Source of the DNA: an uncultured Bacteroidota bacterium
GTDB taxonomy: Bacteria; Bacteroidota; Ignavibacteria; Kryptoniales; JAKASW01
Direction: 5' to 3'
Length of the DNA: 64,000 nt
NCBI GenBank assembly: GCA_963768145.1
Contig: CAVYHK010000033.1
Location: 227,756-291,755, forward strand
The position numbers were made by a program, and so were the translations under genes. This document shows, piece by piece, positions 6,046 through 54,420 of the stretch. The stretch's first letter is position 1; the number at the start of each line of letters is the position of its first letter. The notes beneath the pieces were generated by a model. The model was not told the DNA's origin. It saw only the letters and a list, made by a program, of their open reading frames with translations, and ran no database searches.

Positions 6046-6699
6046 CTACACGATCTCAACGTCCAGTGAAACATACCCAATAAGTTCGGCGTGGAGTTTA
6101 TCACCCGGTTTAAGTTGCGCAACACCTTCCGGTGTTCCGGTGAAAATCAAATCTCCCCGTTCGAGCGTAAATAATTCCGATATGAAGGCGATTACTTCTT
6201 CGATTTTGAAGATAGTGTTTTTATAGCTTCCCCGCTGGCGAGGCTTACCATTTACCGAAAGTGTCAGTTCCAGAGAGTTGAGATCCACCCCTTCGACGGG
6301 AACTGCGTTAGAAATCGGTGCCGAGCCATCAAAACCTTTGGAGATAAGCCAGGGGTTTCCTTCGTTTCTCAACTCCGTCTGAATGTCGCGAAGGGTCAGG
6401 TCAAGTCCGACACCCATTGCCGTTATGAATGATCTAGCGTCTTCCCCAGGAATATTCTTCCCTTCCTTGCCGATCGCGAAGAAGATCTCGGTCTCATGGT
6501 GAAGGTCGTTCGTCATTGCCGGAATTTTTATTTTCGCTCCATCGTGAACAATTGCGGTCGAAGGTTTCATGAAAACAATCGGCAGTTCGGGTACTTCGGA
6601 TTTCATCTCAGCAGCATGTTTCGCATAATTCTTGCCGAGACAAAAAATCTTGGGGACAATTATGTCCTCATTGGATTTGGAAAGATGCACAGTTTCCAT
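6046..6699 (-). CDS. fumarylacetoacetate hydrolase (FAH) family protein
   Basis: CLGKNYAKHAAEM..HHETEIFFAIGKEG..DLTLRDIQ..PWLISKGFDGSAPIS..GDLIFTGTPEGV. Confidence 0.85.
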   Translation of the reverse strand: METVHLSKSNEDIIVPKIFCLGKNYAKHAAEMKSEVPELPIVFMKPSTAIVHDGAKIKIPAMTNDLHHETEIFFAIGKEGKNIPGEDARSFITAMGVGLDLTLRDIQTELRNEGNPWLISKGFDGSAPISNAVPVEGVDLNSLELTLSVNGKPRQRGSYKNTIFKIEEVIAFISELFTLERGDLIFTGTPEGVAQLKPGDKLHAELIGYVSLDVEIV

Positions 6700-6742
6700 C
6701 GCGTAAAATATAAATGAGGATTAGGTCTTGTTCAAGAATGCT

Positions 6743-6898
6743 GGGTAGTGGCTAAGTTTGGATTCTCCCGCCGATTTCGCAGACTTCGTCGTGAGCTCAG
6801 TCGAACGATGAACGCTGAAGACAATCTGCGAAAATCTCCGCGATCAGCGGGAAACAAATATCTTCTGGTAGCTCGAAAATTGAAACTGAGGCGCTACC
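6743..6898. mobile_element. 156-bp MITE, TIR GGGTAGTGGCT / AGGCGCTACC, 7-bp TSD GAATGCT
   Basis: The direct repeat gaatgct occurs at 6736-6742 and 6899-6905. The body is ~94% identical to 53500-53655. The internal long hairpin is TCCCGCCGATTTCGCAGA...TCTGCGAAAATC..GCGGGA. Confidence 0.8.
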
Positions 6899-7017
6899 GA
6901 ATGCTGCGGTTGCGTCTAATGAAATGTGGCACTAGAACCGGCATGCGCAACCATGGTGCCTTAGAGGAAACTGCATGCCTGGACCAAAGTCTTTTGAGCC
7001 CGACTCGAACCCTCCTC

Positions 7018-8136
7018 TTAAGTCAACTCCTTCTTATAACATCTTCTTCTTTTGTGCTGGCGCTTCTCAAAGAATTTCCATTGTGCCTGGACTTTGAGGT
7101 TCCCCTCAAGCTCCCTGTTTGTCTCAACTTTTTTAATCTTCTTTGCAATGTAGACTCCCATGATCTGGCATATTAATATCGCATTTACTCCTTTGTTTTG
7201 CATATCTGCGCGCACGGCGGTGAGATAAAGATCTGCACGGGGATTATTCTTCATCGCCCTGAGAAGCGGGATAAATCCGAATGGCAGGAGCCTTCCTTTG
7301 TTCTTCTGAAGTGCAGCAGACAACGAAGGCATTGTAATTCCAAATGCGGCGATCCTGCCGTTTGAATCCAGAACTGCCGGCACATACTCGGGCATGATGA
7401 ATCCGAAATACTGCTTTACGTACATATCAATCTGCTTGTCCGACAATTCGACGAAGCCATATAAATCCTTATAGGCATCGTTGAGTAAGTGGAAGATTTC
7501 CTTGGCATACGGAAGCATCTCTTTTGCTTTCTTCACCTTGAGAATCGTGAGGTTGTTTCTTTTCAGCGCAATGTCGGCAATCCTCTGTACCTCCTCATTC
7601 ATTTGCGTCGGCACGTCGACCTGGTACTCAATCCAGTCGGCATCCTTCGAGTAGCCAGCGGCCTCAATATGTTCAGGATAATATGGATAATTGTAAAGTG
7701 CACCAAGCGTGCTCACCTCTTCGAAGCCTTCCACGAGAACGCCTTCGGCGTCCATATCCGTAAATCCCAGAGGTCCATGAACGGTCGTCATGCCGTTTTC
7801 CTTTGCCCACGCCTCGACCGTGTTCAGGAGCGTCGCAGATACTTTCTTATCGTCTACGAAATCAAACCACCCGAAGCGGGCTGTTCTCGCGCCCCACTTT
7901 TCATTATACTTCCTGTTTATTATCCCTGCGATCCGGCCGACAATCTTGCCGCCCTCATAGGCGAGCCAATATTTCACATCGCAGAAATCGAAAGCGGGAT
8001 TCTTATCCCATCTCAGTGACTTAACTTCATCGCCTCGGAGTGGGGGAACCCAATACTTGTTACCATCGTACAGAGAATACTGAAATGATACAAACCTTTT
8101 CAGTTCGCGCAGGCTGGTTACTTCTTTGATTTGCAT
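7018..8136 (-). CDS. GNAT-like N-acetyltransferase family protein (two-domain, uncharacterised)
   Basis: MQIKEVTSLRELKRFVSFQYSLY..YWVPPL...WLAYEGGKIVGRIAGIINRKYNEKWG..ARFGWFDF matches a family widespread in Bacteroidota. A GGAGG sits 7 nt upstream of the ATG at 8136. Confidence 0.6.
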   Translation of the reverse strand: MQIKEVTSLRELKRFVSFQYSLYDGNKYWVPPLRGDEVKSLRWDKNPAFDFCDVKYWLAYEGGKIVGRIAGIINRKYNEKWGARTARFGWFDFVDDKKVSATLLNTVEAWAKENGMTTVHGPLGFTDMDAEGVLVEGFEEVSTLGALYNYPYYPEHIEAAGYSKDADWIEYQVDVPTQMNEEVQRIADIALKRNNLTILKVKKAKEMLPYAKEIFHLLNDAYKDLYGFVELSDKQIDMYVKQYFGFIMPEYVPAVLDSNGRIAAFGITMPSLSAALQKNKGRLLPFGFIPLLRAMKNNPRADLYLTAVRADMQNKGVNAILICQIMGVYIAKKIKKVETNRELEGNLKVQAQWKFFEKRQHKRRRCYKKELT

Positions 8137-28588: not shown

Positions 28589-28688
28589 GCGTTGAGATAG
28601 GGAATAGCATTTTCTTGATTCTTCGAGGCGGTGGTTTTACATTGCAACAGCGTTGGTCCTATTGCCTGCGAATCGACTGCAGGAATTT

Positions 28689-28820
28689 TGGTGCTGGCTC
28701 AGTTTGGTTTCTCCCGCAGATTTCGCAGATGAACGCAGAAAATATATCAGCGAAAATCAGCGCGATCAGCGGGAAACAAACACCTTCTGATAGCATAAGA
28801 GGTGAAATTGAGCCACTGCA
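28689..28820. mobile_element. 132-bp MITE (short variant), TIR TGGTGCTGGCT / AGCCACTGCA, TSD GGAATTT
   Basis: ggaattt occurs at 28682-28688 and 28821-28827 (the direct repeat extends to 13 nt, ctgcaggaatttt). The body shares the gtttgg..tctcccgcagatttcgcaga...gcgatcagcgggaaacaaa core with 6743-6898. Confidence 0.65.
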
Positions 28821-28872
28821 GGAATTTTTGGTTCGTACAGTTCATAATAAAGTAGAAATAGAGGAGGATTGC

Positions 28873-29295
28873 GTGAACTGGAAACTTATCTTGCTGCTTA
28901 CCCTTTTCGGTATCGCTTTGGCGTTCGCCGGAGTATTGGGTTTGCCGGGAAGGTATGAGGCTATTATCTGGCCTGTCATTTTCATTATCTATGCGGTCAT
29001 AATTGTCAGGAAAACAACCGGGAAATATTTTCTCCACGCGTTTTTGACCAGTATAATAAACGGGGTCTGGATCGGCGTCATTCATGCGGCTTTTATGTCC
29101 ACCTACTTGGCAAACCATCACGTCATAAGCGAGTTCTACAAGACGATGCCGCTGAGCTATCATCGCCGCATAATGACTGTCATTATGGGACTGGCACTTG
29201 GAGTAATCATGGGGGTTATTGCAGGACTCGTAGCGTACGCCGCTGAGAAGACAATGAAGAAAAAAGAGTCAGCACCTCAGCCTCAAAGTAGATGA
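28873..29295 (+). CDS. small 4-TM membrane protein, unknown function
   Basis: GTG start 5 nt after GAGGAGG. The ORF-track N-terminus (28615-28872) is MITE sequence. Confidence 0.5.
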   Translation: MNWKLILLLTLFGIALAFAGVLGLPGRYEAIIWPVIFIIYAVIIVRKTTGKYFLHAFLTSIINGVWIGVIHAAFMSTYLANHHVISEFYKTMPLSYHRRIMTVIMGLALGVIMGVIAGLVAYAAEKTMKKKESAPQPQSR

Positions 29296-29792: not shown

Positions 29793-30124
29793 TGCCGATG
29801 CTTGACGGCGAAGAGATGGTTTACATCCAAGGAGTCATCAAAGACATGACTGATAATCAAGCGCAGCAGTTTGCAAACATCTATAACGTAAGAAGAAAGG
29901 ATCCGCAGACAATTCTCCTCGTCACGCTGCTAGGATTTCTGGGAGTTGCCGGAGTGCAGCGTTTTCTGACAAACCGCATCGGCATGGGCTTGCTTTACCT
30001 GTTCACGGTCGGATTATGCTGGATCGGAACTATCGTCGATCTGGTGAACTACCGCAGAATTGCTTTCGAATATAATTACGAGGTGGCGCAACAAGTCGCT
30101 GTTATGGTAAAAGCGTCAAGTTGA
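29771..30124 (+). CDS. TM2 domain-containing protein
   Basis: ILLVTLLGFLGVAGVQRFLTNRIGMGLLYLFTVGLCWIGTIVD. Confidence 0.8.
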   Translation: MANILQLMPMLDGEEMVYIQGVIKDMTDNQAQQFANIYNVRRKDPQTILLVTLLGFLGVAGVQRFLTNRIGMGLLYLFTVGLCWIGTIVDLVNYRRIAFEYNYEVAQQVAVMVKASS

Positions 30125-30229
30125 GAAAACAATTAAGCACTTAGACATTTCCAGGAAGAAGCATGCTTCGAGAACCATCCCCTGATTGCAGTTTGTCAAT
30201 CTTGGAGATTGTCGCGTCCCTTCCTTTCC

Positions 30230-30514
30230 CAGTAGTGGGCTATTTTGAACTGGGCCGAAATTTATTTGCGATCCCTGTGCCTTCTCAGCGTTTGAGCGCC
30301 TTGCGGCATCGAGTCCGTTGAGCAACCATGTTTCGTCATCCTGAACTTGTTTCAGGGTCTCAAAACAAGAGGATATTAGATGCTGAAATAAATTCAGCAT
30401 GCCTAGTTCGTACTTCCGCACCGGACTCCATCCCGCATTCTCGTATCAGATAATTGAGCGGGAGAGACGCAATGGACGCAAAGAGAATATTCGCGACTAA
30501 AATAGCCCAGTACC
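30230..30514. mobile_element. 285-bp MITE of the same TIR family, TSD CCTTTCC
   Basis: TIR CAGTAGTGGGCT (30230-30241) pairs with AGCCCAGTACC (30504-30514). cctttcc occurs at 30223-30229 and 30515-30521. The cargo differs (gtcatcctgaacttgtttcagggtct-type hairpin). Confidence 0.65.
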
Positions 30515-30632
30515 CCTTTCCTTGATTCTTGGGGGCTCCGAAACTATATTTTCCCGCTAAATCCTCCAACGGGGTCCTACGGACCCTCAGGACAAGCAAT
30601 AACTTGCAAAACATCAAGATTTATGGGAGTTT

Positions 30633-41848: not shown

Positions 41849-41923
41849 TGGGCTCTACTGGATTCGAACCAGTGACCTCTCGCGTGTGAGGCGAACGCTC
41901 TGAACCAACTGAGCTAAGAGCCC
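41849..41923 (-). tRNA. tRNA-Val (anticodon CAC), canonical cloverleaf
   Basis: GGGCTCT-TA-GCTC-AGTTGGTTCA-GAGC-G-TTCGC-CTCACAC-GCGAG-AGGTC-ACTGG-TTCGAAT-CCAGT-AGAGCCC-A. Confidence 0.92.
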
Positions 41924-41989
41924 GCGTCACCTTGAAAATCTATCATCAAGCAAAAAAAGAGCAGGCTTCCACACACTACAATCGTTCTG

Positions 41990-42064
41990 TGGGCTCTATC
42001 CCGCAAAGCGGGATGACCTCTCGCGTGTGAGGCGAACGCTCTGAACCAACTGAGCTAAGAGCCC
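41990..42064 (-). ncRNA. tRNA-Val(CAC)-like unit with non-canonical T-arm (ATCCC-GCTTTGC-GGGAT)
   Basis: 58/58 identical to 41849-41923 outside the 17-nt T-arm, which is replaced by a different 17-nt hairpin. Confidence 0.7.
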
Positions 42065-42130
42065 GCCTCACCTTGAAAATCTATCATCAAGCAAAAAAAG
42101 AGCAGGCTTCCACACACTACAATCGTTCTG

Positions 42131-42205
42131 TGGGCTCTATCCCGCAAAGCGGGATGACCTCTCGCGTGTGAGGCGAACGCTCTGAACCAACTGAGCTAAG
42201 AGCCC
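42131..42205 (-). ncRNA. tRNA-Val(CAC)-like unit with non-canonical T-arm (identical to 41990-42064)
   Basis: 75/75 identical to the previous unit. Confidence 0.7.
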
Positions 42206-44447: not shown

Positions 44448-44533
44448 TTTACCAAAATAATGTGACCGTTGAGAATTTCTTCGAACTAAAAGTTATGAAT
44501 TTCCGAAGCTAATTCAAAAAAACCGTTGAATTT

Positions 44534-44737
44534 GGGTAGTGGGCTCTTTTGAAATTAAGAAAAGATAAAATCTGACCACTAATTGCACGAATTGCTTTTT
44601 GTCGGACACAAATGCGCACGAATAAGGCTTTCCATTCGTGTCATTAAACATAATTGAATTTATTAGTTTTATTCTGCCGAAGGCATCCCTTCGGGAGTGT
44701 TCATATTTCTTTTCTAGGAACAAAGTAGCCCACTACC
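44534..44737. mobile_element. 204-bp MITE, TIR GGGTAGTGGGCT / AGCCCACTACC (11/11), TSD TGAATTT
   Basis: tgaattt occurs at 44527-44533 and 44738-44744. The element lies 87 nt upstream of the YitJ-like start. Confidence 0.8.
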
Positions 44738-44866
44738 TGAATTTGCCTGAGTATGTCAGTCTCCACCGTGACAAAATCATTGCAAATTCTTGACAAAATT
44801 GTGATAATCGTTCATTCAGATTCTTATATGTTAAGTGCATGAATTTAAGCAGAAGGAGATGAGTTT

Positions 44867-51804: not shown

Positions 51805-51942
51805 TTGAAATAGACTCCGTAATTTTTTGTCGAGAGATTAAAAAGATAGAACACAGATAGGCATAGATGAAACGGATTCTCGCAGATCAAGAAATTGAAA
51901 ATTAAATCTGTGAAAATCAGTTCCCTTACTATCATCCGTGTT

Positions 51943-53182: not shown

Positions 53183-53499
53183 GTGCTTTTTCTTTCGCAA
53201 TCTTTCAGCATGGGAGCTAATAATCTATCGCGGGCAATCGCCGTAACTCTGAACCAGTGAATCCGTATCATAAATTGCAGATTCCAGCTTTACTTCCGCG
53301 GTCAGGTGGCGCAGTGCTCCGTTGGAAGATTGTAATCCTGCCGGTCTGAAAACCATTGATGTAGATTCCGAAACTTCTGCCTAACATTTCTTTTTCCAAT
53401 TGCCACGGCAGAACCGTCAAATAAAACATAGAAGATAGCCGTCTGATAAGAATAAGAACGACGTCGCACCGCAAGGTTGTGTTAACCCTGGACAGGGCT

Positions 53500-53655
53500 G
53501 GTACTGCCTCTGTTTGGATTCTCCCGCAAATTTCGCAGACTCCGTCGTGAGCTCAGTCGAACGATGAACGCTGATGACATATCTGCGAAAATCTGCGCGA
53601 TCAGCGGGAAACAAATATCTTCTGGTAGCTCGAAAATTGAAATTGAGCCACTACT
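53500..53655. mobile_element. 156-bp MITE (sister of 6743-6898), flanked by direct repeat ACAGGGCT
   Basis: acagggct occurs at 53492-53499 and 53656-53663. TIR GGTACTGCCT pairs with AGCCACTACT. Confidence 0.75.
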
Positions 53656-53662
53656 ACAGGGC

Positions 53663-53691
53663 TTGACAACGGAATCGGGAGATGTTATATT
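53663..53691 (+). promoter_or_regulatory. sigma70-like promoter TTGACA-N17-TATATT of the tetR-efflux operon (plus possible operator ATGACcgtcaaGTCAT 53692-53707)
   Basis: The -35 is at 53663-53668 and the -10 at 53686-53691. Confidence 0.5.
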
Positions 53692-54420
53692 ATGACCGTC
53701 AAGTCATATTTCGACTATGCAGTATCATTTCCGACTTTGGAGTTTGATGTGAAAGGTTTTCATTCCAACATTTCTGAAAATAGCCGACATGTCCTATCCC
53801 GAAAGGAGCGCGAGAAGCAATTGCGACAGCGGGAGATATTGAGTTCGGCCCGGGAACTCTTCCTCCAAAAAGGGTACCATAACACAACCCTTGAGGAAAT
53901 AGCTCAGCACGCAGAGTTCGGCAAAGGAACGATTTACAATTACTTCAGCAGTAAAGAGGAGCTCTTTTACGGTATACTCGACGACCTGATAGATGAAGTC
54001 CATGAGACTGCACAGTCGTCAATCAATACCCCCGGCAATATCCGCAGTAAATTCACAGCATACGCAAAGAGAATTGTTTCTTATGCAGAGGTAAACTCCG
54101 ATATCTTTCAGCTGATCGTTCGTGAAATGCACAGCTTGAACTCTCCCAATAGCGACGCCAAATTAAGAAACCTCAAACGACGCTACGCAAACGTCATGCA
54201 CCTCCTTGCCCAATTGATCAAAGATGAAATAGAAGAGAAAAAAATCAGAAAACTGGATCCTCTCAGATTGGCGACGTTATTCGACAGCATGGTTCAATTC
54301 TTTTGCATTAATCATTTCGGGCCGCACCGACTCGAGAAAATCGATAATATCGACGACGAAGTTGCCCTTATAGTCTCTGTTTTTTTCGATGGAATTTCAG
54401 AACCAAAACCGGAAGGATAA
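53692..54420 (+). CDS. TetR/AcrR family transcriptional regulator
   Basis: ILSSARELFLQKGYHNTTLEEIAQHAEFGKGTIYNYFSSKEELF. The true start may be the in-frame GTG at 53749 (GGAG 6 nt upstream), because the -10 box abuts the ATG at 53692. Confidence 0.85.
   Translation: MTVKSYFDYAVSFPTLEFDVKGFHSNISENSRHVLSRKEREKQLRQREILSSARELFLQKGYHNTTLEEIAQHAEFGKGTIYNYFSSKEELFYGILDDLIDEVHETAQSSINTPGNIRSKFTAYAKRIVSYAEVNSDIFQLIVREMHSLNSPNSDAKLRNLKRRYANVMHLLAQLIKDEIEEKKIRKLDPLRLATLFDSMVQFFCINHFGPHRLEKIDNIDDEVALIVSVFFDGISEPKPEG

Follow-up and report, generated by a model that had tools for sequence, protein, structure and literature searches.

Five gene-free elements with IS1-type ends and 8-bp target duplications in 64 kb of Kryptoniota DNA: probable MITEs mobilised in trans

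Five short segments of a 64-kb stretch of Kryptoniota DNA (the whole stretch analysed, hereafter the window) lie between genes, begin and end in related inverted sequences, and are each bracketed by a direct repeat. This arrangement raises the questions whether the segments were inserted by transposition, whether they constitute a single family, and what kind of enzyme could have moved them. The window itself contains no transposase homologue (best tblastn E-value, 0.02), as the original prediction, drawn from the window sequence, had stated.

Junctions of the five elements, denoted e1 to e5, were read base by base. Every element starts with GGTAG or a one-base variant, and each is bounded by an 8-bp direct repeat that is perfect in four of the five copies and matches at seven of eight positions in e3. 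Element e1 (6744-6898; 155 bp), with the ends GGTAGTGGCTAAGTTTGG and, on the reverse strand, GGTAGCGCCTCAGTTTCAA, lies between two copies of GAATGCTG (6736-6743 and 6899-6906) in a spacer having a GNAT-domain gene on one side and an FAA-hydrolase family gene on the other. Element e2 (28690-28820; 131 bp), following a DUF3795 gene, has two degenerate ends, GGTGCTGGCTCA and TGCAGTGGCTCA, and the duplication GGAATTTT (28682-28689 and 28821-28828). Element e3 (30231-30514; 284 bp), with ends AGTAGTGGGCTATTTTGAA and GGTACTGGGCTATTTTAG and a unique interior, occupies the spacer separating efp from a TM2-domain gene and lies 118 bp upstream of the former; its duplication, CCTTTCC(C/T), reads CCTTTCCC on the left (30223-30230) and CCTTTCCT on the right (30515-30522). 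Element e4 (44535-44737; 203 bp) is flanked by divergent genes, carries the perfect 11-nt end GGTAGTGGGCT on both sides, and is bracketed by TGAATTTG (44527-44534 and 44738-44745). Element e5 (53500-53655; 156 bp) occurs immediately upstream of a TetR-family gene, between copies of ACAGGGCT (53492-53499 and 53656-53663). No strand is assigned to any of the five, which range from 131 to 284 bp. A search with nhmmer retrieved no further copies from the 64-kb window, and the elements matched no Rfam family.

All five elements are thus present where originally predicted, with minor boundary shifts. The junctions then recognised are identical but had been read one base off, as GGGTAG rather than GGTAG, and the duplications, described as 7 bp long, are 8 bp, the only reading that fits all copies. 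The claim that each site bears a different duplication was borne out in all five: the duplicated sequence changes from copy to copy and its length is constant. The elements had also been termed ORF-free, and those ORFs that overlap them have no Pfam match. Mechanically called ORFs do traverse the elements at 28615-29295 (+), 6748-7176 (+) and 30116-30617 (-). The 226-residue ORF beginning at 28615 is probably a 135-residue gene, as it appears in a distant relative (contig L008), with a false N-terminal extension through e2. For annotation, the elements therefore account for spurious ORFs and N-terminal extensions, the first two of these ORFs being examples. Elsewhere in the window, three tandem tRNA genes with a spacing of 141 bp lie at 41849-42205 (-), two of them having identical Rfam scores.

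By sequence comparison, the elements of the window are assigned to three families having one class of ends. Elements e1 and e5 show 92% identity along their entire length, and e2, at 80-83% identity to these two, is a homologue from whose interior 25 nt are missing; together they form family A, represented by three copies in 64 kb, and their homology ends exactly at the duplications. Elements e3 and e4, single copies in the window, have only about 19 nt of end sequence in common (GGTAGTGGGCTmTTTTGAA) and share nothing of their interiors with family A. The single MITE family first proposed accordingly contracts to e1, e2 and e5, with e3 and e4 separate and related by their class of ends alone. 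The proposal that cargo differs between copies holds between the three groups and fails within family A, whose members are homologous; likewise, the common inverted ends of about 11 nt are perfect in e4 and imperfect in family A (8-9 of 12 positions). Across the elements, inverted ends match at 8-11 of 12 positions around a consensus GGTAGTGG(G)CT, the end-pair form of the class being GGTAGTGG(G)CT...AG(C)CCACTACC. The family A ends are degenerate: those of e2 and e5 have undergone two or three changes per 12 nt, and in e1 the sequence is GGTAGCGCCT.

Such short ends carry little weight by number. The bare 10-mer GGTAGTGGCT, allowing two mismatches, occurs 24 times in the window, with 25.6 occurrences expected from shuffled sequence, and is therefore not enriched; a de novo scan for inverted ends matching at 9 of 12 positions beside an 8-bp duplication, a scan of low power, returned only e1 and e4 (simulated mean, 0.24 hits). 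Motif counts alone are thus not the evidence. What places the observation beyond chance is the homology of family A, which stops at the duplications, together with exact empty sites for two of the elements.

These empty sites demonstrate transposition of e1 and e3 directly. Two metagenomic contigs (L137, from JGI 3300038967, and L138, from Logan SRR5440535), whose FAA hydrolase is 91% identical to that of the window and whose flanks are very similar, lack exactly 163 bp, corresponding to e1 plus one duplication, and retain a single GAATGCTG in the junction ...GTTCAA-GAATGCTG-TGGTT.... A third contig (L015, from Logan SRR22234383), encoding an EF-P 94% identical to that of the window within flanks alignable nearly base for base, lacks 292 bp, or e3 plus one duplication, and reads ...CTCCCTT-CCTTTCCT-TGATTCTTGG..., again with a single copy of the 8-mer. 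The occupied and empty site pairs that had been sought as confirmation were thereby obtained for both elements and, with the site-specific duplications, they uphold the initial view that these sequences arose by real transposition rather than REP-like amplification. The more distant relative mentioned above (L008), whose coding regions are 71-77% identical to those of the window, lacks both e2 and e3; its spacer at the e2 position measures 101 bp, compared with 107 bp expected on removal of e2, in an alignment too poor to define an exact empty site. Exact-protein look-ups with the EF-P and FAA hydrolase of the window returned nothing, or the same strain only. One further contig from the same strain (L001; Logan sample ERR10755942) is identical to the window and stops 59 nt into e1 (L001 1-59), an assembly break of the kind expected at a repeat.

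A rival reading is that the elements are now fossil copies, mobile in an ancestor or stranded by later loss of the transposase, such that nothing in the present genome moves them. We regard this as a serious possibility, although not the one we favour. It accords with the lack of a transposase in 64 kb, with the degenerate ends of family A and the 8% divergence of e1 from e5, and with the internal deletion and lower identity of e2. Set against it, e1 and e3 are missing from close relatives having highly similar flanks and so were inserted after those lineages split; e4 retains perfect 11-nt ends and a perfect duplication; and five copies within 64 kb suggest a large family. The family A copies, given their degenerate ends and the divergence of e1 and e5, may no longer be mobilisable.

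An insertion sequence bearing the same ends had been proposed as something to look for, and examples were recovered both from metagenomic contigs and from a Mesorhizobium plasmid. Scanning metagenomes with GTAGTGGGCTNTTTTGAA retrieved at least 120 contigs. The end GGTAGTGGGCTnTTTTGAA, which no fewer than 120 metagenomic contigs contain, delimits elements there that range in size from 31 bp to 3.3 kb and are flanked by duplications of 8 bp. Among the matches listed, the base preceding the scanned end is G in 113 of 131 ends, which argues that these ends are homologous and not chance occurrences. Again among the matches listed, 30 metagenome elements of 31-3275 bp have paired ends and an 8-bp repeat matching at seven or eight positions; with the single Mesorhizobium plasmid element they make 31 insertions outside the window, and the 8-bp rule holds for these. 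The metagenome elements fall into size groups of 31-42, 124-171, 298-554 and 664-778 bp and 2.4-3.3 kb, and one more element of the same kind measures 3329 bp (L153). The correspondence extends beyond the terminal bases: the family A end GGTAGTGGCTCAGTTTGGA is identical at 17 of 19 positions both to the end GGTAGTGTCTCAGTTTGAA of one metagenome element (L056) and to the Mesorhizobium end GGTAGTGGGTCAGTTTGAA, and the left 25 nt of e4 match the ends of two others (L103 and L100) at 24 positions.

One transposase of 280-340 residues, in a single ORF, is encoded by each of seven elements measuring 2.4-3.4 kb: L103 2198-4621, L056 2934-5594, L113 5773-8529, L052 192-2970, L119 241-3515, L153 3303-6631 and the Mesorhizobium loti plasmid CP050295.1 (L141 1302-4671). 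Proteins from the first five of these, when aligned, show 51-72% identity to that of L103, with the residues D, D and E invariant. Six of the seven transposases reach the Pfam gathering score for PF03400 (DDE_Tnp_IS1), and for all four tested against NCBIfam the best model is NF033558 (IS1 family), with E-values of 1e-12 to 1e-16 and scores of 46-62 bits, which lie below the curated cut-off of 100. Scores under the cut-off, together with weak hits to IS6 models, indicate that these proteins are distant members of the IS1 family. Homologues number at least 8000 at E <= 1e-20 and are annotated by JGI and NCBI as IS1 family transposases; none of the 120 homologues listed is labelled Kryptoniota. 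Two abundant transposase clusters (P0311 and P0267) mostly represent one insertion recovered repeatedly from different samples; L153 was the only independent element that they contributed. The ends themselves read GGTAGTG when examined for the pattern GGnnnTG, which in combination with duplications of 8-9 bp is a signature of IS1 (PMC10425158, table; PMC6807381). The two-ORF programmed frameshift of classical IS1 is not present. The ends of the window elements match those of a large, mostly soil-borne assemblage of IS1-family insertion sequences.

The main competitor for parentage is the IS6/IS26 family, from a member of which the MITEs could have been derived and by which they could have been moved. 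Its elements have GGnnnTG ends in which the G residues at positions 1, 2 and 7 are conserved, as well as 8-bp duplications (PMC6807381), and the transposases described here show weak hits to PF13610 and NF033587. The gathering score of PF13610 was reached by none of the seven, however, in contrast to the six passing that of PF03400; the IS1 model outscored the IS6 model (NF033587, 19-32 bits) in each of the four NCBIfam-scored transposases; and the source annotations of homologues name the IS1 family. We therefore consider an IS6/IS26 origin improbable, and an IS1-family parent the better account.

Elements of intermediate size connect insertion sequence and MITE. Two of 510-554 bp (L055 4985-5538 and L034 563-1072) have perfect ends and perfect duplications and retain transposase fragments of 76-88 residues; these intermediates show the passage from insertion sequence to MITE by internal deletion.

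Several other features of the group were recorded. Passenger genes were located at L119 1042-2157, L141 2279-3382, L113 7391-8295, L103 3225-4043 and L052 1478-2311; a protein combining HTH_3 and Peptidase_M78 domains (ImmA/IrrE-like) is encoded in two elements, HTH with DUF3467 in one, and an unknown protein of 272-277 residues beside the transposase in two full-length elements. At the other extreme are elements of 31-42 bp that consist of just two inverted ends, for example GGTAGTGGGCTGTTTTGAAACAGCCCACTACC, six of them with a perfect 8-bp duplication and two with one matching at seven of eight positions (L053 3455-3485, L027 8658-8689, L122 672-703, L129 9119-9151, L065 5513-5545, L099 1482-1518, L066 2803-2841 and L112 8418-8459). 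They are mobile in their own right, as exceptionally small units, or else remnants left when larger elements collapsed in situ; their varied lengths favour the latter. Elements also occur back to back with one shared 8-mer between them (L056 2934-5921, L072, L074, L085 and L110; in L046, with 9 nt). The order in L056 is CAAGAGTG, a 2661-bp insertion sequence, CAAGAGTG, a 319-bp MITE and CAAGAGTG. Neighbours so arranged often differ in end variant, for example GGTAGTGTCCTAAT and GGTAGTGGTGCAGTTTGAA, and the arrangement points to reuse of the same target or to insertion beside a resident end.

Within the window, the interiors of the elements are dominated by secondary structure. Folded as DNA, three of the elements pair along their whole extent, from one end to the other (z-scores between -2.2 and -6.1): e1, as single-stranded DNA, at -24.9 kcal/mol (z-score, -2.2), e3 at -50.8 kcal/mol (-4.9) and e4 at -36.1 kcal/mol (-6.1). 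The core of family A is one long hairpin in which TCCCGC..CGCAGA pairs with TCTGCG..GCGGGA; in the window this hairpin (TCCCGC..CGCAGA / TCTGCG..GATCAGCGGGAAA) is found inside the MITEs only, at 6763-6855, 28709-28779 and 53519-53612. An internal 20-mer, CGCGATCAGCGGGAAACAAA, had six matches in a collection of genomes (L002-L007), all in unrelated metagenome-assembled genomes (MAGs) and none in the source genome of the window. Each of the six is the bare hairpin module and not the MITE, and the hosts are MAGs of Saprospiraceae, Saccharicrinis, Roseivirgaceae, Bacteroidales, Flavobacterium and Chthoniobacterales (Verrucomicrobiota). In one of them (L004) almost the entire family A interior aligns (nhmmer E-value, 5e-9) and the ends are absent. 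Family A thus comprises IS1-type ends around a widespread palindromic module, either captured or nested. No match to e1 was found among 72,556 plasmids, nor was any obtained in two scans of viral contigs. A segment of the window at 51870-51925, GGATTCTCGCAGAT...ATCTGTGAAAATCAG, bears a faint likeness to the family A interior (76% over 46 nt; BLAST E-value, 0.26), has no recognisable ends, and could be a degenerated remnant or a free-standing hairpin.

That the elements are instead REP/REPIN-like palindromes, which recombination or a RAYT-type enzyme disseminated and whose flanking repeats are incidental, would suit these hairpin-built interiors and the occurrence of the family A module without such ends in unrelated genomes, but is very hard to reconcile with duplications that are exact (7 of 8 in e3) and different at each site, with absences in relatives that are exact and leave one 8-mer, and with the same ends bounding DDE transposase genes.

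Taken together, these results lead us to assign a probability of roughly 85% to the view that the five elements are non-coding, non-autonomous MITEs bearing the ends of a single-ORF group of the IS1 family and mobilised in trans. We infer mobilisation in trans from the window having no transposase; a matching enzyme would be resident now, or would formerly have been resident, in this Kryptoniota lineage. As we envisage it, an IS1-family DDE transposase supplied in trans would bind the ends of about 19 bp (GGTAGTGG(G)CT...TTTGAA/GGA) and connect them to target DNA cleaved with an 8-bp stagger; repair of the gaps would then generate the 8-bp duplication. The chemistry may be copy-and-paste or proceed through a cointegrate, as is typical of IS1. 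Under this scheme, family A would represent IS1-type ends combined with a palindromic hairpin module, and e3 and e4 would be independent elements with GGTAGTGGGCT-type ends.

The sites of insertion suggest an additional property. Three elements in the window adjoin promoter-like host sequences of the form TTGAnn-N17-TATATT, each facing the downstream gene. TTGAAC-N17-TATATT (6707-6735, -) abuts the e1 duplication upstream of the FAA-hydrolase family gene (6046-6699); TTGATT-N17-TATATT (30522-30550, +), upstream of efp, and TTGACA-N17-TATATT (53663-53691, +), upstream of the TetR-family gene (53692-54420), each begin on the final base of the adjoining duplication, that of e3 and e5, respectively. 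Three of the six TTGnnn-N17-TATATT sites in the 64-kb window, both strands included, thus directly abut a MITE. The motif is already present at the empty e1 site in L137 and the empty e3 site in L015, and is therefore not supplied by the element.

Insertions outside the window show a related bias. With offsets numbered from 0 and counted outward from the element end, such that the duplication occupies the first 8 nt, TTGA begins at offset 15, exactly 7 nt past the duplication, in 11 of the 31 insertions, compared with a mean of 0.38 per offset; among 112 exact ends it occurs at offset 15 in eight, compared with zero to four at any other offset. Insertions with TTGA at this fixed distance include those in L122, L129, L066, L108, L055, L031, L034, L100, L103 and L119. 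The hexamers at offset 15 are mostly TTGAC[GAT], often followed 17-18 nt on by TAnnnT, in flanks that are otherwise dissimilar. The hexamers beside e1, e3 and e5 start at offset 7-8, as opposed to 15 outside the window. The pattern at promoter edges could reflect target choice or survivorship, and the exact spacing argues for target choice. The broader proposition, that the group and its MITEs select targets non-randomly at a fixed distance from a -35-like TTGA(C) hexamer of the sigma-70 type, is one we advance tentatively and hold to be rather doubtful. If target choice does operate, these would be promoter-edge-seeking transposons, situated systematically just upstream of promoters, which in the window are those of efp and of the genes for an FAA hydrolase-family protein and a TetR-family regulator; and, should the bias represent real targeting, they would offer a straightforward and testable example of a promoter-like signal being recognised by a DDE transposase.

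To judge from the searchable literature, this is the first characterised mobile-element family for Candidatus Kryptoniota, a little-studied phylum; in that literature the end sequences occur only in unrelated primers. The elements of the window are further members of an already known element type, IS1-type MITEs, and their ends tie them to an IS1-family group of very great size, with no fewer than 8000 homologous transposases. They also account for one assembly break, that in L001.

Comparison with described systems further delimits the elements. An ISL3 parent, suggested by GGCTCTTTTG in e4, was ruled out, the duplication abutting GGTAG six bases further out. Nezha, a cyanobacterial MITE of 130-170 bp in Anabaena and Nostoc that has been linked to an ISNpu3-like element, resembles them in possessing inverted ends, direct repeats, a stable hairpin and both empty and filled sites (PMC3184786), and one Nezha copy has the 10-bp direct repeat CATTATCTAC (PMC6042816). 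The elements described here differ in their 8-bp duplication and in the phylum of their host, and are set apart from Nezha by repeat length. Both Nezha and the small dispersed repeats of Nostoc were accordingly ruled out, homologues of EF-P and FAA hydrolase placing the window within or close to Candidatus Kryptoniota, of the FCB group, and the Nezha direct repeat being 10 bp. IS26 and other IS6-family elements resemble them in their ends (GGnnnTG, the first, second and seventh bases being G) and in the 8-bp length of the duplication, but the associated transposases fit IS1 models better.

With the IS1 family the group shares GGnnnTG ends (here GGTAGTG), an 8-bp duplication and a DDE transposase matching PF03400 and NF033558. 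The window elements differ from that family in being gene-free, and the related transposases are distant from classical IS1, being encoded in a single ORF rather than by a two-ORF frameshift. Full-length relatives of 2.4-3.4 kb, in addition, carry extra genes (HTH_3 with Peptidase_M78, DUF3467 and unknowns), and the parent fits the single-ORF, passenger-carrying subgroups of IS1, the nearest of which we take to be the ISMhu11-like subgroup of ISfinder. The counterpart on plasmid p_1 of Mesorhizobium loti strain 582 (CP050295.1, approximately 470343-473712) illustrates both the likeness and the distance: it has the end GGTAGTGGGTCAGTTTGAA and the perfect duplication CGCTGGTG, but it differs from the window elements in its length of 3370 bp, its transposase and passenger genes and its alphaproteobacterial host, and has no internal sequence in common with them.
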